Assembly (NCBI GenBank): GCA_027310625.1 | Contig: DAIDAM010000003.1 | Location: 67,278-131,277 of the forward strand | Reading direction: 5' to 3' | Source of the DNA: a bacterium | GTDB lineage: Bacteria; Patescibacteriota; Minisyncoccia; UBA6257; 2-01-FULL-56-20 | Length of the DNA stretch: 64,000 nt | Part shown: piece by piece, positions 10,490 to 63,617 of the stretch | Numbering within the stretch: position 1 is the stretch's first letter | Layout: the number at the start of each line of letters is the position of its first letter | Translations under genes and position numbers: made by a program | The notes under the pieces: model-generated | Told to the model about the DNA's origin: nothing | Seen by the model: the letters and a program-made list of their open reading frames with translations, nothing else | The model's database searches: none

Positions 10490-11992
10490 CTATCTGATTG
10501 TGCCCCCGCCGAGCATTTCGTATTTCTCTGGTTTCTGGTCTCTGGTCTCTGGTCTCTTATAGTAGAACACAGCCGACTGACCTGCGGCGACGAACTTCTG
10601 CCCCTGCTCAAAGATGAGCAGCGCGGATTTGCGCGGATTAGACGCTGATTTGCGCGGATTTTTATCTGCGTTTATCTGCATATCGTCTGCGGGCATCAGC
10701 GTTGCAGGCGCGAGCGGTTGTCTGTACCTCACCCGCGCCAACACCTTATACCCCTTATTCGCACGAATTAGGGGTATAGTTTCCGAGTTGATGAAATTCA
10801 CATCGTGGAGTTTAATTTCTTTTCTGTACAACGCCGAATTGTCGCTCCCTTCTGCTACCACAAGCGTATTTGTTTCAACGTTTTTCTCAGCAACATAAAG
10901 CGGCTTGAAATCCGTTTTCTGCATAAGTCCGCGTTCTGTCTGTGTAAGTCCGCGATTGGTCATGCCAATATGTCTCTGCCCAATGGTGTAAAAATGCGCG
11001 CCGGAATGCCTGCCGATTTCTTCTCCGGCGGTATTCAAAACCGCGCCTTCTCTCGCGGGAAGATAACCGCCCAAAAACTCGGCGAGCGTAACTTTGCCGA
11101 GAAAGCAAATTCCCTGCGAATCTTTTTTCTCCGCCGTAGGCAAACCGGCTTTTCTCGCCATCGCCCGCACTTCTGACTTCAAATAATTGCCTATCGGGAA
11201 AAGGCAGTGTTGCAATTGCTCTTGCGTCAACGTCCAGAGAAAATATGACTGGTCTTTTTGCGCGTCACGCGCAGCGTATAGTTTATAACCATAACTCGAA
11301 TCTACGAATGTGCGCGAATTTGGCGAATTTAAAAAACTTTTATATTCGTTATATTCGCGCGAATTCGCGATATTCGAATTACGCATAAGCCGCACGTAGT
11401 GCCCGGTCGCCACGTAAATCCCTGCCTGCCGGCAGGCAGGCGCTCCCACGGACAGCGCTTTTTCCAAAAAGAGCCCGAACTTAATTTCCTTGTTGCACAT
11501 CACGTCCGGGTTGGGAGTAATGCCGCGGCGGTAACCGTCAACCATATAAGCGACGACTTTCTTTTTATATTCCTCCTCGAAATCCCAGATATAAAAAGGG
11601 ATTTCGAGTTTGCCGGCGACGCGGCGTGCGTCCTCGGCGTCTCTTTCCGCCTGACATTCATCGTCAAAATTTCCGCGCCCATCCGCGTTGAAATCCGCGT
11701 TAATCCGCGTGTTGGACGAAGTCCAACATTTCATAAAAACGCCGACGACATCGTAGCCATGGTTTTTAAGAAGCATGGCGGCGACTGAGGAATCAACCCC
11801 TCCACTCATTGCTACGAATACCTTTTTTTTACAAGCAAAGCCGCCAGCCTGCCTGCCATAGCCCTCGCCTTGCCGAAGCCGACGGCGAAGCGCAGGTTGG
11901 CGAAGGCGGGACATCCCCGCAAAAACTTTTTCTTTCCGTTTCTTCATGCGCCTATTTTTACATCGTCTTCTCCAATATATCAAATAAAACAA
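10490..11992 (-). CDS. mnmA: tRNA-specific 2-thiouridylase MnmA, with several in-frame repeat-derived insertions and a repeat-derived N-terminal extension
   Basis: SGGVDSS PP-loop, conserved MnmA core; low-complexity inserts (NPRKSASNPRKSAL, ETRDQKPEKYE). Confidence 0.85.
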   Translation of the reverse strand: MFYLIYWRRRCKNRRMKKRKEKVFAGMSRLRQPALRRRLRQGEGYGRQAGGFACKKKVFVAMSGGVDSSVAAMLLKNHGYDVVGVFMKCWTSSNTRINADFNADGRGNFDDECQAERDAEDARRVAGKLEIPFYIWDFEEEYKKKVVAYMVDGYRRGITPNPDVMCNKEIKFGLFLEKALSVGAPACRQAGIYVATGHYVRLMRNSNIANSREYNEYKSFLNSPNSRTFVDSSYGYKLYAARDAQKDQSYFLWTLTQEQLQHCLFPIGNYLKSEVRAMARKAGLPTAEKKDSQGICFLGKVTLAEFLGGYLPAREGAVLNTAGEEIGRHSGAHFYTIGQRHIGMTNRGLTQTERGLMQKTDFKPLYVAEKNVETNTLVVAEGSDNSALYRKEIKLHDVNFINSETIPLIRANKGYKVLARVRYRQPLAPATLMPADDMQINADKNPRKSASNPRKSALLIFEQGQKFVAAGQSAVFYYKRPETRDQKPEKYEMLGGGTIR

Positions 11993-17635: not shown

Positions 17636-17735
17636 TATTATCGCACGAATTTACGAATCTTTACGAACATACGAATTTACAGTAAGTAAAATTTAATCTA
17701 TTCGTAAGTTCGTAATTTATTCGCTTATTCGTGCG
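17636..17735. repeat. intergenic palindromic element, ACGAATTTACGAA…TTCGTAAGTTCGT family
   Basis: long imperfect inverted repeat. Confidence 0.6.
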
Positions 17736-19185: not shown

Positions 19186-19195
19186 TTTTGATGTA

Positions 19196-19278
19196 TCGCG
19201 CGAATTTACGAATTTTTACGAACATACGAATTTACGGTGAGCATAATAGAAGTTATTCGTAAGTTCGTAATTCATTCG
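19196..19278. repeat. intergenic palindromic element, ACGAATTT family
   Basis: inverted repeat nearly identical to 17636-17735. Confidence 0.6.
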
Positions 19279-19279
19279 C

Positions 19280-19963
19280 TTATTCGTGCGATTTTATTCT
19301 TTTAAACACTTCCCCTTTGTATATCCAGACCTTGATTCCTATCGTCCCGTAAGTCGTAAAAGCAGTGGCTTGGCCGTAATCAATGTCGGCGCGGAGATTT
19401 TGAAGAGGCAGGGCTCCTCTTTTGAGGGACTCTTCTCTTGCTATTTCGGCTCCGTTTAATCTTCCTGACAAAGTTATTTTGACGCCCTTCACTTCTTTAT
19501 TTTGCGCAACCTGCTCCAGATATTTTTTCATTGCTCTTCTGAAAGGAAAACGCTTTTCCAGATCCCAGGCGATTTGCTGGGCAACATAAGGGGCGGCAAT
19601 TTCGGATTTTTTCAACTCCTCCACATTAACACTCAGGCTAACACGGTTTTTAACTTTTCTTTCTTTTCTAATCGTTTCCTCAAGTTCCTTTGTAAAGTCC
19701 TCTATCCCTTTTCCGCCGCGCCCGATTATAAGGCCCGGCCTTGCGGCTTTTATCACGACTTTGAGATTGTTCGTTGTACGCTCTATTTCAATTGACGCAA
19801 TCCCCGCCAACCCGAATTTTTTTCTGATGAGTTTTCTTATAATCTCATCTTCGGCAAGATACTTCGCATACGAACGCCCCCCTTTGCCGTGCAAAAACCA
19901 GCGGACCGGCCAGTCCTTTATTATGCCTATGCGAAGCGATTGTGGATTTATTTTCTGTCCCAT
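19280..19963 (-). CDS. rpsC: 30S ribosomal protein S3; the upstream 22 codons of the ORF lie in a MITE and are probably not translated
   Basis: S3 KH/C-terminal domains; start MGQKINP. Confidence 0.92.
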   Translation of the reverse strand: MGQKINPQSLRIGIIKDWPVRWFLHGKGGRSYAKYLAEDEIIRKLIRKKFGLAGIASIEIERTTNNLKVVIKAARPGLIIGRGGKGIEDFTKELEETIRKERKVKNRVSLSVNVEELKKSEIAAPYVAQQIAWDLEKRFPFRRAMKKYLEQVAQNKEVKGVKITLSGRLNGAEIAREESLKRGALPLQNLRADIDYGQATAFTTYGTIGIKVWIYKGEVFKRIKSHE

Positions 19964-23128: not shown

Positions 23129-23257
23129 CTAACTTTAAATTCTAAATACGAAATTCGAAATTCTAAACAATATCTAAATTCTAAATTTCAAACGGGTTTG
23201 TAATTTGTGATTTGTTGTTTAGGATTTGTTTCAAATTTAGTGCTTCGTGCTTCGGAT
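23129..23257. repeat. intergenic palindromic element, AAATTCTAAAT…ATTTAGAATTT family; also at 16634-16694 and 63113-63233
   Basis: inverted AAATTCTAAA/TTTAGAATTT arms. Confidence 0.6.
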
Positions 23258-23821
23258 TTATATTTTAGATATCTGTAAAAGTCCTCCGCGCGCGCCGGGA
23301 ACCGCGCCTTTAATCATCAAGATGTTTTTATCCGCGTCCACGCCGGCGATTTTCAGATTTTTTACAGTCACTCTCTCGCCACCCATGCGTCCCGCCATTT
23401 TTCTTCCCGGAAAAACTTTCTGCGGCGCCGTGGGACCGATTGAGCCCGGTGCGCGCCAGCGATTTTTCTGCCCGTGCGTTTTCGGTCCGCCGGCGAACCC
23501 GTGTCTCTTGACTACTCCCTGAAACCCTCGCCCCTTGGAAACACCGATTACCTTCACCATGTCGCCTTCTTTGAAAACCGAAATGTCAATGACATCGCCG
23601 ACTTTGAGGTTTTCCTTGTCACTGGTCACTGGTCGCTGGTCGCTCAATCGGAACTCGCGCCGTTTCTTCCCGTCAGTGATTTGAACTGCTTCATATCCGT
23701 CTTTTTCCTTTGTTCGTAGCAAAGCGACTTTATTTTTGGAAACTTCAACGAGCGTCACAGGAGTGACCTTGCCGTCTTTCCAAACCTGGCTCATGTTCAG
23801 TTTTCTGCCTAAAATAAACAT
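23258..23821 (-). CDS. rplC: 50S ribosomal protein L3, with an in-frame heptamer-repeat insertion (…SDQRPVTSDKE…)
   Basis: L3 signature; CTGGTCA/CTGGTCG tract at 23616-23650. Confidence 0.93.
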   Translation of the reverse strand: MFILGRKLNMSQVWKDGKVTPVTLVEVSKNKVALLRTKEKDGYEAVQITDGKKRREFRLSDQRPVTSDKENLKVGDVIDISVFKEGDMVKVIGVSKGRGFQGVVKRHGFAGGPKTHGQKNRWRAPGSIGPTAPQKVFPGRKMAGRMGGERVTVKNLKIAGVDADKNILMIKGAVPGARGGLLQISKI

Positions 23822-23900
23822 CTTTTTTATCGCTCGAATAAGCGAATATTACGAATTTACGAATTCGTATGTTCGTAAAAATTCGTAAATTCGCGCGATA
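23822..23900. repeat. intergenic palindromic element, ACGAATTT family
   Basis: cgaataagcgaatattacgaatttacgaattcgtatgttcgtaaaaattcgtaaattcg. Confidence 0.6.
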
Positions 23901-28528: not shown

Positions 28529-29003
28529 TGATTTATCGCACGAATTTACGAATCTTTACGAACATACGAATTATTATTAACAATTCTCTTAAAAATAACA
28601 CCTTTAGACGTAAAATTTGCTAGGATGGCGAGTGGCAAATTGCTTGCTTTGAGATAGTTAAAAATCTGCTCCGCGTTATGACGAGAAAACGCCACACCCT
28701 TTTTAATCTCAATTATTACTTTTTCTTCAACTAAAAAATCGCATCTTTGTCTGCCAACTGCTTTACCATGAAACATAACGGGCAACAAAACTTCTCGCCT
28801 AAATTTTAATCCTGCATCCTCGAATGCTAATGCCACTGCGCGTTGATAATAATTTTCCGAGTAACCAGAGCCGAGTGCATTGCTGACATCGAATAGCGTT
28901 CCAACAATTTTGTAGCTCAGCTCGGGCTCAATAATGTCGCTCCTTCGCAACTTTCTCTCGCTCATAATGATTCGTAAGTTCGTAATATTCGCTTATTCGC
29001 GCG
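28529..29003. repeat. ACGAATTT-family palindromic element whose two arms (28529-28560 and 28966-29003) are separated by an inserted GxxExxY gene
   Basis: left arm atcgcacgaatttacgaatctttacgaacatacgaatt; right arm attcgtaagttcgtaatattcgcttattcgcgcgat. Confidence 0.6.
28546..28965 (-). CDS. GxxExxY family protein (PD-(D/E)xK-like; the family is associated with 23S rRNA intervening sequences)
   Basis: [21 protein letters not shown]…[13 protein letters not shown] motif pattern of the GxxExxY family. Confidence 0.75.
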
Positions 29004-29472: not shown

Positions 29473-29550
29473 TTAAGTATCGCACGAATTTACGAATTTT
29501 TACGAACATACGAATTCGTAAGTTCGTAATATTCGCTTATTCGAGCGATT
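29473..29550. repeat. intergenic palindromic element, ACGAATTT family
   Basis: cgcacgaatttacgaatttttacgaacatacgaattcgtaagttcgtaatattcgcttattcgagcg. Confidence 0.6.
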
Positions 29551-36813: not shown

Positions 36814-37434
36814 CTATATTCTTCCCGCTTCGTTGCTGAAAAACGATTTAACTTCTTTCCAATCCAAGGGTTTGAGCATCTTCGGCATCGGCTCCGCATC
36901 GGCATCATCGAAATATGTCAAACTCTTTTTTATATGCAGCAAGTTGAATTCAAGCGAAGAGTATTTTTTTCGGAACAGCGCGAGAACGTCGTCCAGCGAC
37001 GCCGTTTCCTTGATGATGAAATACAAGTCAATGAAGTCGCGCTTGGCTCCCCTTGCGGAAATGGCGTCTATTTTCATGCAGGCGATGTCGCGGATATCGG
37101 CAAGCCGAACGCCGCCGAAATGCGCCGATGAGAAAAGAAGCGGATAATGATAGCCGATAAAAGACACTTTTGTTTTTTCGAAAACGCCGATTACCGTTTG
37201 CTCGGCGCGTTTCTCCAGCCGGAAACTTCCCAACTCGGAAAGCCGCGAAATCAACAAGGAATCGTTGAAATCGCGTTCCGCAAAGAAATCCAGGTCGCCG
37301 GAAATTCTGTGCCCGAGATAAAGCGCAACCGCCGTTCCGCCGGCGAGATAAAATTCATTTATGCCGATTAAATTTCTAAGCAGAGAAATCGCCTTCTGCG
37401 AATTGCTCGGCAAAACCTCCGGGTGAAAAGTCAT
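36814..37434 (-). CDS. nucleotidyltransferase AbiEii/AbiGii toxin family (type IV TA)
   Basis: LAGGTAVALYLGHRISGDLDFF motif. Confidence 0.75.
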   Translation of the reverse strand: MTFHPEVLPSNSQKAISLLRNLIGINEFYLAGGTAVALYLGHRISGDLDFFAERDFNDSLLISRLSELGSFRLEKRAEQTVIGVFEKTKVSFIGYHYPLLFSSAHFGGVRLADIRDIACMKIDAISARGAKRDFIDLYFIIKETASLDDVLALFRKKYSSLEFNLLHIKKSLTYFDDADAEPMPKMLKPLDWKEVKSFFSNEAGRI

Positions 37435-37876: not shown

Positions 37877-38578
37877 ATGACGAGACCGCGAATAATTCGG
37901 AACGAAATTTACCATGTCCTTAACCGTGGCGTAGATAAGCGAGCAATTTTCTCAGACGATAACGACCGCCTGCGGTTTATTCATAACCTCTTTGAGTTTA
38001 ACGACACCGCACCTGCACCCAATCTCGCCTACCATCTCGGCAAAAAACAATCTAAGGAAGTCGGACTTCCTAAGATTGAGAGGAGACGGCGGGAACTTTT
38101 GGTGGAAATTCTCGCGTTTTGCATGATGAAAAATCACTATCATCTTTTGGTCAGGCCGAAGGCTGATAATTTTCTAACGTTATTTATGAGAAAACTGGGA
38201 ACAGGGTACACCAATTATTTTAATCAAAAATATAAGCGGAGCGGAGCGCTTTTCCAAGGGAAATACAAAGTGGTGCACATTAACAATGATAGACATTTTA
38301 TTCATCTCCCCTACTACATTCACTTTAATCCATTAGACGGCTTTGCTCCGAGTTGGAGAGAAAAGGAAATAAAGGACCACAAAAAAGCAATGGAATTTTT
38401 GGAGAACTATCGCTGGAGCAGTTTTCCGGACTATATCGGCAGGAAAAATTTTCCTTCAATCACGCAAAGAGAATTTTTACTAAAGTTTTTCGGCGGCCCG
38501 GAGGAATACAAACGCAAAACGACAGAATGGCTAAAAGCAATCGATTTCGAGGCAATACACGACGTTGCACTAGAATAA
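37877..38578 (+). CDS. REP-associated tyrosine transposase (RAYT, IS200-like Y1 transposase); contains an internal REP copy at 38052-38074
   Basis: HxH motif (NHYHLLV) and catalytic Tyr region (LPYYIHFNP); flanked by REP palindromes. Confidence 0.8.
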   Translation: MTRPRIIRNEIYHVLNRGVDKRAIFSDDNDRLRFIHNLFEFNDTAPAPNLAYHLGKKQSKEVGLPKIERRRRELLVEILAFCMMKNHYHLLVRPKADNFLTLFMRKLGTGYTNYFNQKYKRSGALFQGKYKVVHINNDRHFIHLPYYIHFNPLDGFAPSWREKEIKDHKKAMEFLENYRWSSFPDYIGRKNFPSITQREFLLKFFGGPEEYKRKTTEWLKAIDFEAIHDVALE

Positions 38579-41971: not shown

Positions 41972-42415
41972 TTAGTTTCTACGAGTTTCCTTATCCTTTA
42001 TTACCCTATAGGTTGACGATATAAAGTTCTGTAATTTCAGCGACGCCTTTTCGGCAATCACCTTATATTCGGAGTAAGATTTCTTGTCGGCAATTTTGTT
42101 TCTTTCATTCATAAGCTCAAGCCAATAATCATTTGCCTCCATTAAAGAACCGCGGGCATTGTAAAAAAACTTTATCTTGTCCAAGTAATGAAATCTTCCA
42201 TAACCCTCCGCCACATTAGCACCGAAAGAATCTGTTGCTGTAATAAATTGGTCACCCATCGTTTTTTTATCCTGCCAATTTAATCTCTCGTATATTTTCC
42301 ATCCAACCTTTGATAATTCTCTGGCTAATTTATAAATTTCCAAATCCTGTAACTTGATGTAATTCCTTTTAGTTTCCACGAGTTTCTTAGTTTCAATCAG
42401 TATCCTAATTTCCAT
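41972..42415 (-). CDS. four-helix-bundle protein (TIGR02436-type, associated with 23S rRNA intervening sequences)
   Basis: …FGANVAEGYGRF…LMEANDYWLEL…; flanked by GTTTCTTAGTTTC direct repeats. Confidence 0.8.
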   Translation of the reverse strand: MEIRILIETKKLVETKRNYIKLQDLEIYKLARELSKVGWKIYERLNWQDKKTMGDQFITATDSFGANVAEGYGRFHYLDKIKFFYNARGSLMEANDYWLELMNERNKIADKKSYSEYKVIAEKASLKLQNFISSTYRVIKDKETRRN

Positions 42416-44744: not shown

Positions 44745-45170
44745 TTAGGGCTTGGAATTCGGTGTTTTTTTATGGAGCTTGGCGCGGAGAGCTTGAATTT
44801 GTCTCATCAAAACAAGATAGCGGTTTCGCAAATTGTCATGTTCCTGTTCTGTGACATACTCTAATTTAAATGCCAAAGTAAGCGCGGTCAGCACTTCGTT
44901 AATCGAAGTTGCCGCCATCATAAGAAAATGCAGAAACTCTCTTGTTCCCCTCCCGCTTCCCTCCGCTATGTTGAAAGACACAGAAGATGCGGCTCTTCGC
45001 AGTTGGCTCGTCAACCCAAAAAGTTCGCCTTTCGGAAATTTCGAAGTAGTTTTATAAACCTCCAGCGCCAATTCCATACTTTCTTGCCAAATTCGCAATT
45101 TTTCATAATTTGGAGCAGAGTCCTTTAGACTCAAGCTTGGGTCTTGGTTCTTGGAACTTAGTTCACTCAT
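44745..45170 (-). CDS. four-helix-bundle protein (TIGR02436-type)
   Basis: LRIWQESMELALEVYK…NIAEGSGRGTREFLHFLMMAATSINEV; flanked by CTTGGAA-type heptamer repeats. Confidence 0.8.
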   Translation of the reverse strand: MSELSSKNQDPSLSLKDSAPNYEKLRIWQESMELALEVYKTTSKFPKGELFGLTSQLRRAASSVSFNIAEGSGRGTREFLHFLMMAATSINEVLTALTLAFKLEYVTEQEHDNLRNRYLVLMRQIQALRAKLHKKTPNSKP

Positions 45171-46385: not shown

Positions 46386-48944
46386 ATGTATCGCTTTTTA
46401 GAAATTTTTCCCGGAGCGCTTTCGTGGCTGACTCTTATCTTACTTGTTTCTCTTTCCCGCTACGCGCCGGCGTTCGTCGCCGTTTTCATCATACTTTTTG
46501 ACATCTACTGGCTTTTGAAAACGATTTATCTCTCGCTGCATCTCCGCTCAACTTTTTCGGTTATGAAAAAAAACCTGAAGGTGAACTGGCTCAATGAGCT
46601 GAAGGCACTGCCGCATAATCCCAATGGCCCGAATAGAATCCAAATGCCCCGAATTATAGAAAAGGATCTCTCTTATAAACTAAGCGGGGTTTTCTTCAAA
46701 GTTCATAACCAACTCGGCAGGTTCTGCAGAGAGCGTCAATATGGCGATGCCGTCGCAAAGGAACTTGAATCCCTCGGCGTAAATTTTCAGCGCGAAGTTG
46801 CCGTTGCGGTCGCCGGGCGAAAATCCAATTTCGTAGATTTTGTCGTTGAAAGCAAAATCGCAATAGAACTGAAGACGAAAGACATAATTGACAAAGAAGA
46901 TTATTTCCAACTTCAAAGATACCTTAAAGCGCTGGGATTGGAATTGGGCATAATAGTCAACTTTAGAAGAAAACACTTGAATCCCAAACGCGTTCTCAAT
47001 TCTGACTTCCTTTACAAGTATTCGGCTGATTCAGATACATTCGGCAATTCGGATTATGTGGTCAATAGATATTCGGACAATTCGGATTCATTCGGATATT
47101 CGGATTATGTGAAATCCTGGGAAGACATTTATCATTTGGTGATATTGCCGATGTACCGCGAGCCGTACGAGGTCGTGAAAGGAAGTTTTGAAAGCATATC
47201 TAAAGGAAACTATCCGCTGGAAAAGTTAATTGTCGTCCTGGCGACGGAAGAACGCGCCGGCGCCGAAGCGAGGAAAACGGCTGAGAAAATCAGGCGCGAG
47301 TTCGGCGGCAAATTTTTCAAGTTTTTGATTACCACGCACCCCGCGAATCTCCCCGGCGAAATTCCCGGCAAGGGTTCCAACGAAACCTGGGCGGCGAAAG
47401 AGGCGAAAAGATTAATCATTGACCCACTGGTCAATGCGCAGACCTACGCAGACAACACGCAGACCGACGCAGAAAACGATTTTCTGTATCCAGACCTGAC
47501 ATATGAAATCAGAGGTGCGATATTTTCCATTAAGAAAAAGCTCGGCCTCGGACACAAAGAAGTTGTTTATCAAAAAGCACTGGAAGAGGAATTTAATCGA
47601 CTAGGTTTGAATTTCGAAAAAGAAAAAACGGTGGATATTGCATATAATAACAAAAAAGTTGGTGTCTACCGCCCAGATTTTGTAATTGAGGATAAAATTA
47701 TTTTGGAACTGAAGGCATTACCATTTATGGGCAAATATGAAAAAAGGCAAGTTTGGCAGTATTTAAAAGGAACGGAATATAAACTAGCTATGTTGGTAAA
47801 CTTCGGCGGTAGCGATATTCGCATAGATAGAATAGTTTACGACACAGCTCGCGCAAGTCAGCGTAAGTCTGCGTTAAGTCAGCGAGAGTCAGCGCTGAAA
47901 TATGAAAATGTTTTAGTGTCGGTTTTCGACATTGACACACAGATATTTCCGGAGTATTTCGGGCGCCTCACATATGTCTTTTTGAAATCCGAAGACAAAT
48001 TGCAGGCGATTTACCAGCCGATACCGCTTTTCATAAATAACATCTACGACGCGCCGGCGCTCGCGCGCGTGATTTCCTTTTCAAGCACCTTCTGGCAGAT
48101 GATGCAGCAGTCGCGGCCGGAACGGCTGACGTCTTTTTCGTCGCAGTCAATCCCCTTGCGGGCGCTCATTGACATCGGCTACTGGCACAAAAACGTCGTC
48201 TCCGAGGACTCGCGGATTTTCTGGCAGTGCTATCTCCGCTATCACGGGAACTTCCGCGTCGAACCGCTTTTTTACCCGGTTTCGATGGACGCCAACGCCG
48301 CGCCGACATTTTGGAGAACGCTCAAAAATAATTACTTGCAGCACCGCCGCTGGGCCTGGGGCTGCGAAAACATTCCCTACTTGCTCTGCGGCAAACATAA
48401 TCCGAATCCACGAATGCATCCGAATAACACGAATAGGAGTCCAGATAATAAATTAGATTCGGAACATTCGGATAGATTCGGGGATTCGGATTATGCGGAG
48501 GGTTTCCTCCACAACAAAAAAATCCCTCTCCGCAAAAAGCTCTACTGGTCGTTCAATGTAATTGAAGGATTCCATTCCTGGGCGACGAACGCGCTGATAA
48601 TTTTCGCTCTCGGCTGGCTGCCCGTTCTTTTGGGCGGAGAAGGTTTCGGGATTTCCATTTTGTCGCGGAGCCTGCCTTCGATTACAAGATTCATCATTCA
48701 ACTCTCGATGGTCGGAGTCGCCACCGCCGCTTTCTTCAGCATTCTTCTTCTGCCGCCGCGAAAAGAACCTCTCGAATGGCATCAGTATATTTGGTATCTC
48801 CTCCAATGGCTTCTTCTGCCCGCGACACTCATAATTTTCGGGTCCATCCCCGCGCTCGAGGCGCAAACGCGGCTGATGGTCGGCGGAAAATGGCGGCTCG
48901 GATTCTGGCCGACGCCGAAAACGAGAACCAATAATAGAAGCTAG
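46386..48944 (+). CDS. processive family-2 glycosyltransferase (cellulose-synthase-like; GKGxN, DxD, Q(H)RRW motifs) carrying two in-frame GxxExxY domain insertions (~46644-47000 and ~47481-47840) plus heptamer-repeat tracts
   Basis: GT2 motifs VILPMYREP, GKGSNETWAAKEA, VFDIDTQ, QHRRWAWG; inserted segments each align with the free-standing GxxExxY gene at 28546. Confidence 0.8.
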   Translation: MYRFLEIFPGALSWLTLILLVSLSRYAPAFVAVFIILFDIYWLLKTIYLSLHLRSTFSVMKKNLKVNWLNELKALPHNPNGPNRIQMPRIIEKDLSYKLSGVFFKVHNQLGRFCRERQYGDAVAKELESLGVNFQREVAVAVAGRKSNFVDFVVESKIAIELKTKDIIDKEDYFQLQRYLKALGLELGIIVNFRRKHLNPKRVLNSDFLYKYSADSDTFGNSDYVVNRYSDNSDSFGYSDYVKSWEDIYHLVILPMYREPYEVVKGSFESISKGNYPLEKLIVVLATEERAGAEARKTAEKIRREFGGKFFKFLITTHPANLPGEIPGKGSNETWAAKEAKRLIIDPLVNAQTYADNTQTDAENDFLYPDLTYEIRGAIFSIKKKLGLGHKEVVYQKALEEEFNRLGLNFEKEKTVDIAYNNKKVGVYRPDFVIEDKIILELKALPFMGKYEKRQVWQYLKGTEYKLAMLVNFGGSDIRIDRIVYDTARASQRKSALSQRESALKYENVLVSVFDIDTQIFPEYFGRLTYVFLKSEDKLQAIYQPIPLFINNIYDAPALARVISFSSTFWQMMQQSRPERLTSFSSQSIPLRALIDIGYWHKNVVSEDSRIFWQCYLRYHGNFRVEPLFYPVSMDANAAPTFWRTLKNNYLQHRRWAWGCENIPYLLCGKHNPNPRMHPNNTNRSPDNKLDSEHSDRFGDSDYAEGFLHNKKIPLRKKLYWSFNVIEGFHSWATNALIIFALGWLPVLLGGEGFGISILSRSLPSITRFIIQLSMVGVATAAFFSILLLPPRKEPLEWHQYIWYLLQWLLLPATLIIFGSIPALEAQTRLMVGGKWRLGFWPTPKTRTNNRS
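47000..47115. repeat. ATTCGGA/ATTCGGC heptamer-type repeat tract encoding …DSDTFGNSDYVVNRYSDNSDSFGYSDY… inside the GT2 gene; a similar tract at ~48405-48490
   Basis: period-7 direct repeats. Confidence 0.7.
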
Positions 48945-48959
48945 AATATAGAATTTAGA

Positions 48960-50172
48960 ATGAAAAAAATAAAAACGATTCTCGCGATTGAAACAAGTTG
49001 CGACGAAACGGGGATTGCTCTTGTTGAAGCGAAAGGTGGTTTTGCTTCGCCGAAATTCAGAGTCCTGAAAAACCTCGTGAGTTCACAGATAAAAATTCAC
49101 CGTCCTTTCGGCGGCGTCGTGCCGGGACTCGCCAAGCGCGAACACATCAAGAATCTTCCGAAACTTTTTCGGAAGATTCTTGTAAATTCTAAATCCGGAA
49201 TCCGGAATCCGAAACAAATTTCAAATTTCAAATTTCAAACATTGATTTAATTGCCGTCACCGTCGGTCCCGGGCTTGAACCGGCGCTGTGGACGGGAATA
49301 ACTTTTGCGCAAGAATTGCGCAAGCGACTAGCAACCAGAGACCAGAGACAAGAAAAGAAAATAAAAATTATCGGAGTGAACCATTTAGAAGGACATCTCT
49401 ACAGTTTTCTTTTGCGGCAGCAAAAGAAAACTGCAAATCAGAAATCAGAAATCAGAAACGTAAAAATTTGGGATTTCATGCTTCAAATTTGAGATTTCCA
49501 GCTATTGTTTTGCTGGTGAGCGGCGGACATACGGCTCTTCTCTTGATGAAAAATTTAAGAAAATGGAAAAAACTCGGGGAAACGCGGGATGACGCGGCGG
49601 GCGAAGCATTCGATAAAGTCGCAAGAATGCTCGGCCTCCCCTATCCCGGCGGTCCGGAAATCGAAAAACTGGCGAAAGAAGGTGACGCAGACGCGATAAA
49701 TTTTCCGCGCCCGATGCTCAACCAGAAAAATTACGATTTCAGTTTTTCGGGAATAAAAACGGCGGTATTTTACTATCTTAGAGACCGAATCTCTTACGAA
49801 AATACGAAAACATACGAAAGTACCAAAACGAAAAATAAATTTCGTAATTTCGCGCCGTTTCGTACTTTCGTAAGTAAGGCCGATATCGCCGCTTCGTTTC
49901 AAAAGGCGGTCGTTGAAACACTTGTCAAAAAAGTGGAACGGGCGGCGAAAGAATACGGGGCGTGCTCGCTCATTCTCTGCGGCGGAGTTGCGGCGAACAA
50001 GGTGTTGCGCGAAAATATGCGAAAAGCTGCTCACAAAATAAACGCGGAATTCATCGCGCCGCCGATGGAATACAACAACGATAACGCTGCGATGATTGCG
50101 GCCGCGGGATATTTCGCCTCGCTCCGGAGCAGAAAATTGCCGCTCAAGGCCGACGGCGATTTGAATATATAG
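48960..50172 (+). pseudogene. tsaD: tsaD (tRNA N6-threonylcarbamoyladenosine synthesis, Kae1/YgjD family) split into three reading frames by two -1 frameshifts, each inside a heptamer-repeat tract (49186-49240; 49425-49492)
   Basis: N-terminal ([11 protein letters not shown]…[16 protein letters not shown]) in frame 0; middle ([12 protein letters not shown]…VNHLEGHL) in frame 2; C-terminal (FPAIVLLVSGGHT…DDAAGEAFDKVARMLGLPYPGGP…) in frame 1. Confidence 0.75.
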
Positions 50173-50214
50173 TCATGTTAATCTTAAATTCTCAACAATC
50201 TCAAATTCTCAACT

Positions 50215-50250
50215 TGTTAACATTTTACGCGATCGCGTAAAATGTTAACA
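50215..50250. promoter_or_regulatory. 36-bp perfect palindrome TGTTAACATTTTACGCGATCGCGTAAAATGTTAACA
   Basis: perfect inverted repeat; a second near-identical copy at 50819-50853. Confidence 0.6.
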
Positions 50251-50304
50251 AAATAATAAAACAGCGGCGGTTGACGGACAGCGACGGTTAACGGTGAAAA
50301 AAAG

Positions 50305-50811
50305 TTAAATTATCTCGGCTTCTTTTGCCTCAAAAAATTTAATATATGGGAAAAGTTGAAGTTTTCTCAAAGATTCGACAAATTGTTCCGGCAATGGCGC
50401 CGGTCCAAGCCATAAACTCTTTTGAAGCATCTCGAATCCAAGACATAAAAGCTCGGCTCTCAACCAATCGCGTTTTTTCTTATGTATCTCTGGGACATCA
50501 AAAGAAATGACAATACTTTTGGGATTTCGCTTGGCAGTTTTTTCGCTGTGGGTCGGGAAAAGAGAAATTTTGTTTGCAAAGTATCCGCGCCCGGCTTTTG
50601 TAAGCCGCCATATACCCTTTTTATTTTCTACAAATCCCCTCTTTTTGAGACGTGAAAGTGTAACACGTATCGCAGAATCAGAAGCATCCTCAAAACCGCG
50701 ATAAATTCTACCATCAGAAAAAGGACTTGCACCGCTTAATTTTCTGCGCATCAAACGATAGCCGTCGTGATAACTGAATAAAATAGTCAAGATGTCATCC
50801 GTTAATCCCAT
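50305..50811 (-). CDS. winged-helix regulator-like protein (PaaX-like N-terminal HTH: RVTLSRLKKRGFVENKKGIWRLTKAGRGYF); function unknown
   Basis: wHTH-like segment; gene bracketed by two copies of a 34-36 bp palindrome. Confidence 0.45.
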   Translation of the reverse strand: MGLTDDILTILFSYHDGYRLMRRKLSGASPFSDGRIYRGFEDASDSAIRVTLSRLKKRGFVENKKGIWRLTKAGRGYFANKISLFPTHSEKTAKRNPKSIVISFDVPEIHKKKRDWLRAELLCLGFEMLQKSLWLGPAPLPEQFVESLRKLQLFPYIKFFEAKEAEII

Positions 50812-50818
50812 TTCAAAA

Positions 50819-50853
50819 TATTAACATTTTCAGCGATCGCGTAAAATGTTAAT
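50819..50853. promoter_or_regulatory. second copy of the TTAACATTTT(C/A)(A/C)GCGATCGCGTAAAATGTTAA palindrome
   Basis: near-perfect inverted repeat. Confidence 0.6.
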
Positions 50854-50864
50854 AAAAATTTTCA

Positions 50865-53800
50865 TTGAAAAGATTGAACAGGTTGAGACAATCCCTTAAA
50901 ATAAAATCAATGTCGGAGATTTTGGAACCGCGATACGACCACCAAAAGCACGAAAAGGAAATTTACGAACTCTGGGAAAAGAGCGGGTATTTTAATCCGG
51001 ATAATTTGCCTACGGCAAGTTCGGAGTTCGGAGTTCGAAGTTCGAAGAATAAAAAAATATCTCAAACGAAACCTCGAACCTCGAACCTCGAACCGTTTTC
51101 CATTATCATGCCTCCGCCGAACGCGAACGGCTCGCTACATCTCGGGCACGCCGTGTTCGTCGCGTTGCAGGACATACTCATAAGATTCTGGCGCATGCGC
51201 GGCAAAAAAGCGCTCTGGCTTCCGGGGGCGGACCACGCCGGCTTTGAAACGCAGGTTGTCTTCGACAAAAAACTTGAAAAGGAAGGGCGGAATAGATTCA
51301 CCATTCCGCGCGAGGAACTTTTCAAAGAAATCTGGGACTTCACCCAGCACAATAAAAAAATAATGGAAGAGCAGTTGCGTAAACTCGGAGCGTCGTGCGA
51401 CTGGAGCCGCGAAAAATTCACGCTTGACCCGGCAATCATTAGAATCGTCTATGAAACTTTTGAAAAACTTTACAAGGACGGACTTCTTTACCGCGATTTG
51501 CGCGTCGTCAACTGGTGTCCGAAACACAAAACCGCGCTCTCCGACCTGGAAGTGAAGCACGAAGAGCGTCTGGACCAGCTCTACTACATAAAGTATGGGC
51601 CACTAACATTAGCGACAGTGAGACCGGAAACGAAATTCGGCGACACGGCGCTTGCCGTGAACCCGAAGGACAAACGCTATTCAAAATACATCGGAAAAGA
51701 AATACGCGCCTTGGGCCTGCTCGGCAAACTCACATTCAAAGTCATCGCCGACGAAGCCGTTGACCCGAAATTCGGGACGGGGGTCATTAAGGTCACGCCC
51801 GCGCATGACCCCGCGGACTTTGAAATCTGGCAAAGGCACAAAAAAGAAATTCCCGGTCCGAAAATAATCATTGACGAAAACGGGCGGCTTACCGGCGAAA
51901 CAGGAAAATTCGCAGGGATGAAAGTCGCGGAAGCGAGAATAAAAGTCGCCGAAGCGATGAAAGAAATCGGCATTCTTGAAAAAGTTGAGAACGATTACAA
52001 ACACTCCGTTGCCGTCTGCTACAAGTGCGGCAACGTGCTCGAGCCGATTCCGAAGATGCAATGGTTCATCGCCATGACGGCGAAACCGCATCAATCAAGA
52101 GACCGGAGACCGGAGACTGGAGACCGGAAAAAATCGTTGCGCGATTTGGGAATCGAGGCAGTTGAAAAGAAAAAAATAAAATTTTATCCGGCGCATTCCA
52201 AAAAAGTCATTCTTCATTGGCTGAAAAATATCCGCGACTGGAACATTTCGCGGCAAATCGTCTGGGGCATAAGAATCCCCGTCTGGTACTGCCTCGCCTG
52301 CTCCGCCCGCCCCGAGAGCAATCGAGGGGAGCCGAAGATAAACATTAATCAGGAAGTGAAATCGCGCTGGTTTCTCGTAAGGCACGGGGAAACGGATTGG
52401 AACAAGGAAGGACGCATAATGGGACAATCCGACATTCCACTCAATAAAACTGGGATGGCGCAGGCGGAAGAAGCCGCGCGGGAATTAAAGCCGCACAAGG
52501 TAGATCTTATTATAAGTTCTGACTCGGCGCGCTGTCGCCAAACTGCGGAAATAATTAAAAAAGAGACGGGCGCGGAAATAATCCTCGAAAAAAAATTAAG
52601 AGAGCGCCACCACGGAGACATCGAGGGATTGCTACGAAAGGATGTTTTTGAACAATATCCCCGTATTTACGAATACAGCTACGAAGGCAAATATATGAAT
52701 GCCGAAAGCTATCGCGAATTGGAAGAGCGCGCATGGGAAGTTTTCTCGTCGCACCATTCAAGGCACGGCCATAAAAACGTCGTTTTGATTACGCACGGTG
52801 GGACGATTAGGATGCTTATAAAAAGAATAAAAAATCTTACTCCGGAAGCGGCTCTCTCAATACCTTCCAGAAAAAACGCGGAGATAATCCAGCTTGACGT
52901 TTTGGATAAATGCGAAAATTGCGGCGGACATTTTTACGAGCAGGACCCCGACGTTTTTGACACCTGGTTCTCGTCCGGGCAATGGCCGTTTGCGACGCTG
53001 ATGACGAGCGACAAAAAAATGGGTTTCCATGAAGAAGTTGTCCCGCAGGTTTTGGACGGCAAAACCAAGACATACCGCTTGCGCGACCACGGATTCAAGG
53101 TCGGCGACAAGGTTTTGTTTGAAAACTCCGCTACCAAAAAAATCTTCGGATATGGAATTATCACGGAAGCAAAAAAAACCACGATAGACAAAATAGATTA
53201 CACAGACAAAAGCCATTACAAAACCTATAAAAATCTGGACGAGTTGATGACGGCGTTCAAACACAAGAACCCAGAAAAAACTTTTACTTCCAAATCTCCT
53301 GCTTATCTTTACGCTTACGATTTTTACCCGGCGAAAAATTTGGAGACCGACTTCGAAACTTTTTATCCGACCGATGTGATGGAAACCGGATACGACATAC
53401 TTTTCTTCTGGGTGGCGAGGATGGTCATGCTCGGAATTTACACGACGGGAAAAATTCCTTTCAGAACTGTTTATCTCCACGGCTTGGTTCTCGACAAAGA
53501 CAAAAAGAAAATGTCCAAGTCCAAAGGCAACGTTATTGACCCGCTCGGCGTCGCCGAAATTTACGGAAGCGACGCGCTCCGCATGGCGCTGGTCGCCGGC
53601 AACACCGCCGGCAAGGATATCGTCATCTCCGAAGACAAAATCCGCGGCTACAGGAATTTTGCGACGAAAGTGTGGAACATCAGCCGATTCATTTTAATGA
53701 ATAAAATGAAAGACATCAGACATCAGACATCAGACATCAGGGTAAAATTAACGGCTTCAGACAAAAAAAATATTGCGGAAGCCGAAAAAATCAAAGATAA

Positions 53801-54176
53801 AGTCGGAAAACACATTGAAAAATTCGAGTTTCATCTCGCGGCGGAAACGGCATACCATTACATCTGGCATACCTTCGCCGACAAAATAATTGAAGAATAT
53901 AAGCCGCGACTAAAAGCCGAAACGGGTTCCGAGGAAGCTCTCGGAGGCGCGGCGAGCTCGGCATCCGGAGGATTCGCCGCGCCGAGAGCGCAGGCGGGCG
54001 CTCGCCGCAGGAGCGAGCGAACCGCCGATTCCGAGGGGCCCGTTGCGGCTTATCAAACACTGGAAGCAATTCTTCTGGAATGCTTGAAAATGCTCCATCC
54101 GTTTATGCCGTTCATAACGGAGGCGATATTTCAGAAGCTAAACAAAGGAGAAATGCTGATGATAGAAAGATGGTAA
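50865..54176 (+). CDS. valS: valine-tRNA ligase with an embedded histidine-phosphatase (PGAM-like) domain (~52360-52910), a second ~100-aa insertion, heptamer tracts and a GC-rich C-terminal insertion
   Basis: HIGH (PPPNANGSLHLGH) and KMSKS motifs, editing domain; insert has RHGETDWN, RERHHGD and ITHGG motifs of the histidine phosphatase superfamily. Confidence 0.9.
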   Translation: MKRLNRLRQSLKIKSMSEILEPRYDHQKHEKEIYELWEKSGYFNPDNLPTASSEFGVRSSKNKKISQTKPRTSNLEPFSIIMPPPNANGSLHLGHAVFVALQDILIRFWRMRGKKALWLPGADHAGFETQVVFDKKLEKEGRNRFTIPREELFKEIWDFTQHNKKIMEEQLRKLGASCDWSREKFTLDPAIIRIVYETFEKLYKDGLLYRDLRVVNWCPKHKTALSDLEVKHEERLDQLYYIKYGPLTLATVRPETKFGDTALAVNPKDKRYSKYIGKEIRALGLLGKLTFKVIADEAVDPKFGTGVIKVTPAHDPADFEIWQRHKKEIPGPKIIIDENGRLTGETGKFAGMKVAEARIKVAEAMKEIGILEKVENDYKHSVAVCYKCGNVLEPIPKMQWFIAMTAKPHQSRDRRPETGDRKKSLRDLGIEAVEKKKIKFYPAHSKKVILHWLKNIRDWNISRQIVWGIRIPVWYCLACSARPESNRGEPKININQEVKSRWFLVRHGETDWNKEGRIMGQSDIPLNKTGMAQAEEAARELKPHKVDLIISSDSARCRQTAEIIKKETGAEIILEKKLRERHHGDIEGLLRKDVFEQYPRIYEYSYEGKYMNAESYRELEERAWEVFSSHHSRHGHKNVVLITHGGTIRMLIKRIKNLTPEAALSIPSRKNAEIIQLDVLDKCENCGGHFYEQDPDVFDTWFSSGQWPFATLMTSDKKMGFHEEVVPQVLDGKTKTYRLRDHGFKVGDKVLFENSATKKIFGYGIITEAKKTTIDKIDYTDKSHYKTYKNLDELMTAFKHKNPEKTFTSKSPAYLYAYDFYPAKNLETDFETFYPTDVMETGYDILFFWVARMVMLGIYTTGKIPFRTVYLHGLVLDKDKKKMSKSKGNVIDPLGVAEIYGSDALRMALVAGNTAGKDIVISEDKIRGYRNFATKVWNISRFILMNKMKDIRHQTSDIRVKLTASDKKNIAEAEKIKDKVGKHIEKFEFHLAAETAYHYIWHTFADKIIEEYKPRLKAETGSEEALGGAASSASGGFAAPRAQAGARRRSERTADSEGPVAAYQTLEAILLECLKMLHPFMPFITEAIFQKLNKGEMLMIERW

Positions 54177-54273
54177 GGGCTACGAAATTACGAATCAGTA
54201 CGAATATACGAATTCGTACATTCGCCTGCCTGCCGCAGGCAGGTAAAAATCTATAAATTAGTAACCTGACTTA

Positions 54274-63109: not shown

Positions 63110-63233
63110 GATTTTGATAAATCCTAAATTCGAAATCCGAAATTCTAAACAAATTCGAAATTCTAAATTCAAAACGTGTTTGAAATTTGTGATTTGGGAT
63201 TTGTTTAGTATTTAGAATTTAGTGCTTCGAATT

Positions 63234-63617
63234 TTACTTTAATTCCACCTTGCGTTTCCCGCTGCCGGCGGTCTTTCTCACATTGCCCCTGACGGTTCTT
63301 GAATTTGTTTTTGTCCTCTGGCCGCGGGTCGGCAGATGCTTGACATGCCTCGCTCCGCGGTACGTCTGGAGTTCTTTCAATCGCTGAATATTCCTCCTGA
63401 TTACCTGCCTGAGTTCCCCCTCAATGCGGAAATTCTTTTCTACAAACGTTTTTATGCGGTTTATCTCGTCGGGATTCAAATCCTTGACGCGCTTGTCGGG
63501 ACTGATTTTTGAAGAACCAAGTATGCGCCTGCTGCTCGGCAAACCGATGCCGTAAATATACGTCAGAGATGTTTCGATTCTTTTGTTGTCCGGTATGTTT
63601 ACTCCGAGCAATCTCAT
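63234..63617 (-). CDS. rpsM: 30S ribosomal protein S13
   Basis: S13 signature. Confidence 0.93.
   Translation of the reverse strand: MRLLGVNIPDNKRIETSLTYIYGIGLPSSRRILGSSKISPDKRVKDLNPDEINRIKTFVEKNFRIEGELRQVIRRNIQRLKELQTYRGARHVKHLPTRGQRTKTNSRTVRGNVRKTAGSGKRKVELK

Follow-up and report, generated by a model that had tools for sequence, protein, structure and literature searches.

The tsaD gene of a chromosome segment from a bacterium belonging to Patescibacteria (also called the Candidate Phyla Radiation, CPR) lies on the plus strand at positions 48960–50172 of the window, the 64,000-nucleotide stretch of DNA analysed here. The gene is complete and well conserved, but it is spread over three reading frames, and both changes of frame are −1 shifts inside arrays of tandem 7-nucleotide (7-nt) units. 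TsaD/Kae1 is near-universal, belonging to the small set of proteins common to almost all life; it functions in tRNA modification (N6-threonylcarbamoyladenosine, t6A) and is normally essential. As judged from sequence comparison, each shift is best taken as the loss of one 7-nt unit, and a single missing base is not the best explanation. There is about an even chance that the assembled allele is a real OFF allele, generated by replication slippage and carried by much of the sampled population at the least. We infer that cells, not the assembler, were where slippage occurred, and that no functional TsaD comes from the allele. Whatever the fate of this single allele, heptamer arrays are concentrated in tsaD across the CPR loci examined.

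Reading frames and repeat tracts of tsaD

Three stop-to-stop open reading frames (ORFs) cover the gene: 48945–49250 in frame 0, 49193–49492 in frame 2 and 49279–50172 in frame 1. Alignment to 17 homologues and a tblastn frame scan assigned the TsaD N-terminus through KLFRKIL to frame 0, the conserved block ending HLEGHLYSFLL to frame 2, and FPAIVLLVSGGHT through the stop to frame 1. Segment 1 (48960–49250) begins at ATG, continues through tract 1 in translated form and ends at TAA 49248–49250; segment 2 (49241–49492) runs through IIGVNHLEGHLYSFLL with the HxxxH motif, then through translated tract 3 to TGA 49490–49492; and segment 3 (49495–50172), in the frame open from 49279, reads from FPAIVLLVSGGHT onward to TAG 50170–50172. 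A single uninterrupted TsaD frame is absent, with stops at 49248 and 49490. The first shift is confined to 49193–49247, wholly within tract 1, and the second to 49415–49492, which corresponds to tract 3; at both, the DNA would need 1 or 7 additional nucleotides. The initial annotation had described a tsaD readable end to end in three frames, with both frame changes in period-7 tandem repeats whose heptamers it spelled out for tracts 1 and 3, and the ORFs, the alignment, the frame scan, the shift intervals and the letters themselves agree with it throughout.

The joined protein has all conserved catalytic and metal-binding blocks of TsaD (HxxxH, SGGHT and GxxxDN, present as HLEGH, SGGHT and DNAAMI), and Pfam PF00814 is matched in the homologues. 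All columns invariant across the alignment are kept. At columns invariant in the other 17 sequences, the joined TsaD has three conservative private substitutions, the intact homologues having 0–9. Its AlphaFold model is poor (pLDDT 57), and all it indicates is that the inserts rank with the lowest-confidence segments. An alternative genetic code was rejected: TAA is the first stop, and under any code the conserved blocks lie in three frames. Expression as a split protein was also rejected, as frame 2 has no start codon before its conserved block, the earliest being TTG at 49316.

Four repeat tracts are found in the gene, and the inserts make up about 20% of it. Tract 1 (49184–49240, 57 nt) consists of four heptamers, AAAC, three heptamers and AAAC; its letters are AAATTCT, AAATCCG, GAATCCG, GAATCCG, AAAC, AAATTTC three times, and AAAC. 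Tract 2 (49334–49353) is ACCAGAG in 2.9 copies, in frame (ATRDQRQEKK), at an insertion hot spot common to the homologues. Tract 3 (49434–49494), opened by 3.4 copies of AAATCAG (49435–49458), has a left arm of three AAATCAG units plus AAAC, a GTAAA loop and a right arm of five heptamers (AATTTGG, GATTTCA, TGCTTCA, AATTTGA and GATTTCC). Its hairpin is degenerate here (z −0.67) and good in the syntenic relative L029 (z −4.0). Tract 4 (49793–49874) is a palindrome inserted in frame and built of TACGAAA-type units with their complement; it has a 35-nt inverted repeat that is 77% complementary and a strong RNA hairpin (−24 kcal/mol, z −4.84). The perfect heptamer arrays are located at 49192–49211, 49215–49239 (CAAATTT) and 49435–49458 (AAATCAG).

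A perfect hairpin lies directly upstream of each of the two out-of-frame tracts, and both arms of each are coding. The hairpin before tract 1 (49148–49182) has a 16-bp stem, CAAGAATCTTCCGAAA / TTTCGGAAGATTCTTG, and a 3-nt loop, its arms encoding KNLPK and FRKIL. The hairpin before tract 3 (49402–49433) has a 14-bp stem, CAGTTTTCTTTTGC / GCAAAAGAAAACTG, and a 4-nt loop, its arms encoding SFLL and QKKT. The 5′ arms are conserved coding sequence (KNLP..., YSFLL) and the 3′ arms are its reverse complement. A further heptamer array (ATAGAAG, CTAGAAT, ATAGAAT and TTAGAAT; period 7, 4.0 copies by Tandem Repeats Finder, TRF) is found on the same strand at 48934–48961. It fills the 15-nt gap after the upstream stop and overlaps the tsaD ATG at 48960, in the place expected for a ribosome-binding site.

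Inserts that are in frame and translated occupy the same four loops of TsaD in related genomes, and the comparison of tract lengths that the initial annotation had called for revealed one unit fewer here in tract 1 and in the left arm of tract 3. Tract 1 reads 4+AAAC+3+AAAC (57 nt) in the window versus 4+AAAC+4+AAAC (64 nt) in L031, with L033 equivalent. The left arm of tract 3 has three units plus AAAC here versus four plus AAAC in L029, the right arms being equal at five units. Addition of one unit to each array (TTCAAAT in tract 1, AAATCAG in tract 3) was found to yield a single ORF of 408 amino acids (aa); the frame is likewise recovered if each array loses two units. The protein repaired by 7 nt at both sites scores 349.6 bits on TIGR03723 (cut-off 296.1) over profile positions 1–311 of 314, and its inserts equal those of the orthologues in length, residue for residue (ANQKSEIRNQKRKNLGFHASNLRFPAIV versus ANSKSEIRNPKQKNLEFKISNLEFPAIV). 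The deficits relative to the orthologues, taken with the repair by +7, indicate that the shifts are one-unit deficits, in line with the earlier proposal that the number of 7-nt units is what puts the gene out of frame.

These features are best explained by the following course of events. In tsaD of the Parcubacteria/Paceibacteria type, inserts made of 7-nt-unit arrays occupy four surface loops, two of them after a fold-back hairpin, and are ordinarily a multiple of 3 in length and translated. Here, CAAATTT (49215–49239) and AAATCAG (49435–49458) are each one unit short of frame, slipped-strand mispairing during replication having probably removed one unit from a perfect array, twice. The adjacent hairpins may favour such slippage. 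The perfect arrays look recently amplified, because the orthologous units have diverged. The assembled allele is predicted to give a 96-aa N-terminal peptide and no full-length TsaD. It would be a young OFF allele, each lesion being reversible by the gain of one unit and the gene being otherwise undamaged.

Heptamer arrays and 7-nt events in other Patescibacteria

Perfect period-7 arrays were counted in 45 non-redundant CPR loci (among L001–L015, L029–L077 and the window at 48960–50172). The tsaD genes were found to contain 57 such arrays in 46 kb (1.23/kb), the valyl-tRNA synthetase (ValRS) genes 8 in 34 kb (0.24/kb) and other flanking DNA 22 in 215 kb (0.10/kb). The arrays are about ten times denser in tsaD than in flanking DNA, and the majority of the perfect arrays outside tsaD are contributed by this window. 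TRF detected 79 period-7 arrays in tsaD and 48 outside it. Arrays in tsaD with a period divisible by 3 are scarce (one of period 6, two of period 9), and no period-7 array was found in non-CPR tsaD among the loci examined. Literature searches found neither CPR genomes nor tsaD described as carrying heptamer arrays.

The arrays in tsaD lie at the four loop sites and often follow hairpins. The hairpin before tract 1 recurs in relatives with compensatory changes at 9 of 16 pairs, and that before tract 3 recurs with a different sequence and compensatory changes at 4 of 9 pairs; these counts lean towards a conserved hairpin, since the aligned loci were picked for having one. At the tract-3 site, perfect stems of at least 9 bp were observed in 16 of the CPR loci examined, versus 4–6 bp in non-CPR loci. 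Perfect hairpins occupy the same sites in L002, L004, L014, L015, L029, L031, L033, L035, L036, L044, L047, L062 and L069. The coding hairpins resemble products of fold-back or template switching, or a selected structure.

In the window as a whole, 13 perfect arrays of period 7 with 2.5 copies or more were observed, compared with 0.05 expected from Markov simulations, and no perfect array of period 8–12 was found. There are 104 non-redundant tandem arrays in the window, 50 of them inside intact coding sequences (CDSs). Given that the inserts occupy about a fifth of tsaD, two random indels would both fall inside them about 4% of the time. The two hits in one gene were not used as a clustering statistic: the window has just five perfect CDS heptamer arrays, three of which are in tsaD, so the clustering is not significant.

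The frame of tsaD was scanned in 46 Patescibacteria loci (45 non-redundant) and in 70 loci in all when non-CPR loci are included. The gene is in frame in 42 of the 45 non-redundant Patescibacteria loci (43 of 46 counting L068). Insert lengths are 0 modulo 3 at the four sites in 39/42, 38/38, 37/38 and 39/39 loci, or 153 of 157 site instances. Four OFF alleles occur among the 46 assemblies, all otherwise intact and all shifted at the same loops. No frame change in ValRS was found in about 20 loci. Truncated TsaD on long contigs was rejected as a sign of recurrent splitting, such cases being mostly frameshifts in conserved regions with homopolymers or gene-caller start artefacts (L077).

Apart from the window, the OFF alleles are those of L068, L062 and L076. 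L068 has no mismatch with L036/L037 over 4686 nt, save for one CCACATT unit in tract 4 of tsaD, where four copies became three (L068:1860–1885 versus L036:2853–2881); some 350 nt upstream, these contigs agree in a perfect 30-nt array. In L062, which was the closest relative to be found, a de novo 7-nt tandem duplication (ACTATCG in two copies) lies just before IDLIAVT (L062:2255–2280), and dropping one copy restores the frame; this duplication is not explicable as an assembler artefact. In L076, from a 593-kb contig, the shift falls within CTTCGGG, CTTCGGG, CATTAAG, CTTCAAG at the tract-1 site (L076:1245–1300). The L076 shift is ambiguous, as an adjoining T5A5 run makes a long-read error possible. 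Near-identical pairs of CPR contigs differ by three indels, of which two measure exactly 7 nt and fall within heptamer arrays. In L013/L050, a 7-nt unit indel is intergenic, just after the tsaD stop.

Slippage in cells, assembly error and other explanations

A real loss of units in cells is backed indirectly by the +/−7-nt events in tsaD of the relatives. In ValRS, a perfect 30-nt heptamer array (53711–53740) survives intact in this assembly, and an independent k=31 Logan assembly is identical there; exact retention of this array makes systematic array collapse unlikely. The 4+3 architecture of tract 1 recurs in intergenic DNA at 23137–23193 and 63119–63175 with non-identical units, which an assembler could not have collapsed. 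Two Logan contigs (L027 and L028; SRR5161795 and SRR5161805) are 100% identical to window positions 50222–54008; both stop at 50222, within a palindrome at 50214–50251, and do not reach tsaD.

Several points weigh against a real OFF allele. Two hits in a near-universally essential gene require that the first OFF lineage survive and spread, and such a double hit would be surprising if t6A were needed here and no second copy lay beyond the ends of the window. Perfect repeats, as both arrays are, are the easiest to mis-resolve in a heterogeneous population, and L068 might differ from L036/L037 because an assembler picked one allele over another. Searches for a second, independent tsaD sequence from this organism found none: the sole database entry, P0241, is an internal-Met C-terminal fragment of segment 3 from the same 136.9-kb NCBI contig of the same assembly. 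A scan of genome contigs gave 68% identity at best, and two scans of metagenome contigs gave no exact 23-mer match and 83% identity at best. Exact-protein look-ups found neither the 96-aa and 294-aa fragments nor the 852-aa neighbour on record.

The most probable alternative is an assembly or consensus artefact, in which the cells would have an intact tsaD with one further unit per array, and a unit would have been collapsed in two perfect arrays or a minority path chosen at two polymorphic ones. This is less likely than a real OFF allele. The source is a contig from a metagenome-assembled genome (MAG); the gene is otherwise flawless and its product near-universal, which makes two hits biologically hard to explain; and metagenome contigs of relatives often break at the tsaD tracts. 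The two perfect arrays are 24–25 nt long, and presumed true lengths of 31–32 nt would repeat k-mers at k≤24. In all three contractions, a perfect array went from at least 28 nt to less than 28 nt. However, the 30-nt ValRS array was preserved here and in the independent assembly, about 50 other CDS arrays are in frame, the 4+3 architecture also stands in the two uncollapsible copies, L068 lost a unit from a 29-nt array while keeping a 30-nt array 350 nt away, and L062 shows an expansion. A collapse of the k=21 type was rejected as a systematic cause, as perfect 30-nt arrays survive in the same contigs.

Selected phase variation would refine real slippage rather than replace it: the tsaD arrays would serve as a contingency switch for t6A synthesis, assembled here in the OFF state. 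Adaptive phase variation of tsaD is a possible explanation, though an improbable one. As in contingency genes, a tandem unit not divisible by 3 lies inside the coding region. The roughly ten-fold density of period-7 arrays in CPR tsaD with none in non-CPR tsaD, the near absence of periods divisible by 3, four OFF alleles that are otherwise intact, the ±7 polymorphism within one strain of a related species (L068 versus L036/L037), the heptamer array over the start codon and the precedent of a coding heptanucleotide switch, neuO (PMC13001214), all favour it. On the other side, the in-frame state of 153 of 157 site instances indicates strong purifying selection for ON. The arrays are short (2–5 units), a simple switch would not be expected to have two arrays out of frame together, the enzyme affected is a housekeeping one and not a surface or restriction function, and the enrichment could reflect permissive loops plus a local mutational process seeded by the conserved hairpins. 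Short repeat arrays in known systems give low switching rates.

A bolder form of the same proposal, less probable still, makes tsaD of Paceibacteria-type CPR bacteria a dedicated contingency locus, in which heptamer arrays would be maintained specifically in the four loops, beside the hairpins with compensatory changes. Units would be gained and lost at a high rate, populations would always contain cells without t6A, and the result would be bet-hedging on translational fidelity or growth state. It is known that t6A suppresses frameshifting at tandem ANN codons; as the arrays are rich in ANN codons, leakage at the ribosome might return OFF alleles to ON, which would constitute a feedback loop.

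The mechanism is that of repeat-mediated phase variation, and neuO is the nearest precedent. In Escherichia coli K1, neuO (carried by phage CUS-3) contains an (AAGACTC)n tract in its 5′ coding region that undergoes phase variation by strand slippage; the gene is ON only if the number of units is divisible by 3, and OFF genotypes are seen in sequenced genomes (PMC13001214). As in neuO, the 7-nt unit of tsaD lies in the coding region, the unit number modulo 3 sets whether a full-length product is made, and the repeats are translated in frame. Unlike neuO, an accessory capsule-modifying gene with one tract of 3–53 units near the 5′ end, tsaD is a universal housekeeping gene with several internal-loop arrays of 2–5 units, two of which are out of frame together.

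The simple-sequence contingency loci of Haemophilus and Neisseria consist of tetra-, penta- and heptanucleotide repeats in genes for surface structures and restriction-modification. Slipped-strand mispairing, the mutational mechanism there, is the probable one in tsaD, which shares their enrichment of units not divisible by 3 in particular genes. Unlike those loci, tsaD has tRNA modification as its target, a different tract length, and arrays placed in palindromic elements after conserved fold-back hairpins.

Rickettsia palindromic elements (RPEs) are dispersed palindromes found in intergenic DNA and in frame in conserved genes, where they are translated as loop insertions (PMC1779305). A 57-nt module matching tract 1 similarly occurs in coding DNA and in two intergenic copies in the window. 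RPEs, by their published description, are 100–150 bp and not 7-nt tandem units (PMC1779305), whereas the tsaD inserts are built of 7-nt units. Nor are RPEs reported to cluster in a single gene or to switch its frame, and, unlike in RPEs, one arm of the tsaD hairpins is the gene's own conserved coding sequence.

Long-term decay, with tsaD being lost from the lineage, is very improbable. Two disabling lesions in one gene would suit it, but there are no stops, further indels or radical substitutions, and the invariant columns are kept. The order glycosyltransferase–tsaD–PaaX–ValRS is the same as in L029, whose ValRS also has a histidine phosphatase insert, and tRNA-Lys(CUU) in the window retains U36–A37. 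The absence of any further lesion in the gene leaves long-term decay without support.

Programmed recoding, in which two −1 shifts or hops would make full-length TsaD, possibly tuned by t6A status, is poorly supported and scarcely probable. As in programmed −1 frameshifting (dnaX, IS elements), a −1 change is needed and one in-phase X_XXY_YYZ heptamer is present, namely A_AAT_TTC at 49223–49229 in the first shift window; the inserts are also ANN-rich (48% versus 31% in the rest of the gene). Unlike those systems, tsaD has no stimulatory structure, no second slippery site and no conserved shift: the second window has tetranucleotide motifs only, folding downstream of the two sites is no stronger than that of shuffled sequence (z −0.61 and −0.18), and nearly all loci scanned are in frame. 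The yield would also be the product of two inefficient events. An AUU-to-AUU hop across UAA (49245–49252) was rejected, as the invariant Asp of IDLIAVT would become Thr.

Two single-nucleotide sequencing errors, one missing base per tract, which the initial annotation had raised as a cause, are hardly credible: any +1 nt within 49193–49247 and within 49415–49490 would restore the frame, tract 3 contains an A5 run (49461–49465) and homopolymer-type frameshifts in conserved regions account for many truncated TsaD entries of other MAGs, but tract 1 has no homopolymer longer than 3 and neither tract one longer than 5, the inserts would remain 2 aa short of the orthologues where +7 matches architecture and length exactly, the adjoining 3.8 kb is 100% identical in independent Illumina-based contigs, and no further frameshift was found in the 64 kb. 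Of the reading given in that annotation, the frameshift by unit number held up; of the outcomes it listed, frameshift-dependent expression is poorly supported and long-term decay unsupported.

Related elements in the window and significance of the locus

The window is 47% G+C and carries the S10-spc ribosomal operon, EF-Tu/EF-G, SecY, MnmA, RecG, RpoA, ValRS and five tRNAs; tsaB, tsaC and tsaE were not found within its 64 kb. Among its approximately 60 genes, no other frameshifted gene was found. Other candidate broken genes, seen as overlapping same-strand ORF pairs, were rejected as separate genes (S2/EF-Ts, S5/L15, S19/L22, PrsW/Hsp20 and paralogous small proteins) or antisense ORFs. The tsaD gene is flanked by a glycosyltransferase gene and a convergent PaaX-like gene, and the palindrome at 50214–50251, between tsaD and the latter, is a perfect 38-bp, terminator-like element. 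The glycosyltransferase (family 2, 46386–48944) has two PD-(D/E)XK (PDDEXK_3) modules inserted in frame. ValRS (50865–54176) has an in-frame histidine phosphatase (His_Phos_1) domain, an insert that is shared, with the gene order, by L029 and L033.

The 57-nt 4+AAAC+3+AAAC module occurs in three copies in the window (23137–23193, 49184–49240 and 63119–63175). Each intergenic copy is followed by an inverted copy (23137–23260 and 63119–63240), forming a long imperfect hairpin between ribosomal protein genes. A second family of intergenic palindromes, made of ACGAAT(T/N) units (ATCGCACGAATTTACGAATC...ATTCGTGCGAT), also lies between ribosomal protein genes, and palindromes of this type were located at 17640–17735, 19195–19290, 23830–23895, 28535–28575, 29480–29545 and 54180–54215. 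The TACGAA/TTCGTA units of tsaD tract 4 and its orthologues are related to them. A GC-rich palindrome, CCTGCCTGCC/GGCAGGCAGG, is found inside MnmA (11421–11440) and downstream of ValRS (about 54222–54245), and also in tract 4 of L031 tsaD, where it is translated as PAGRQ. MnmA (10490–11992), usually about 360 aa, is about 500 aa here and contains several arrays of period 7, 9 and 10 and two perfect hairpins, all in frame. An IS200-like Y1 transposase gene (37877–38578) matches the model of REP-associated tyrosine transposases weakly (39 bits, cut-off 80), and may have a bearing on how the palindromic elements spread. Two genes for four-helix-bundle proteins of the 23S rRNA intervening-sequence type (41972–42415 and 44745–45170) and an AbiEii toxin gene (36814–37434) lie among pilin-like and hypothetical genes.

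This single allele may still be an artefact; the clade-wide concentration of heptamers and the 7-nt events keep the locus of interest. The ten-fold enrichment in tsaD, taken with the near absence of periods divisible by 3 and with the conserved hairpins that some arrays follow, indicates either a particular mutational process or selection on a housekeeping gene. In practice, tsaD will be scored wrongly in MAGs of this kind, both by automated annotation and in estimates of genome completeness. If tsaD is a natural OFF allele here, t6A would be conditionally dispensable in these episymbiotic bacteria, or mixed populations would be tolerated.

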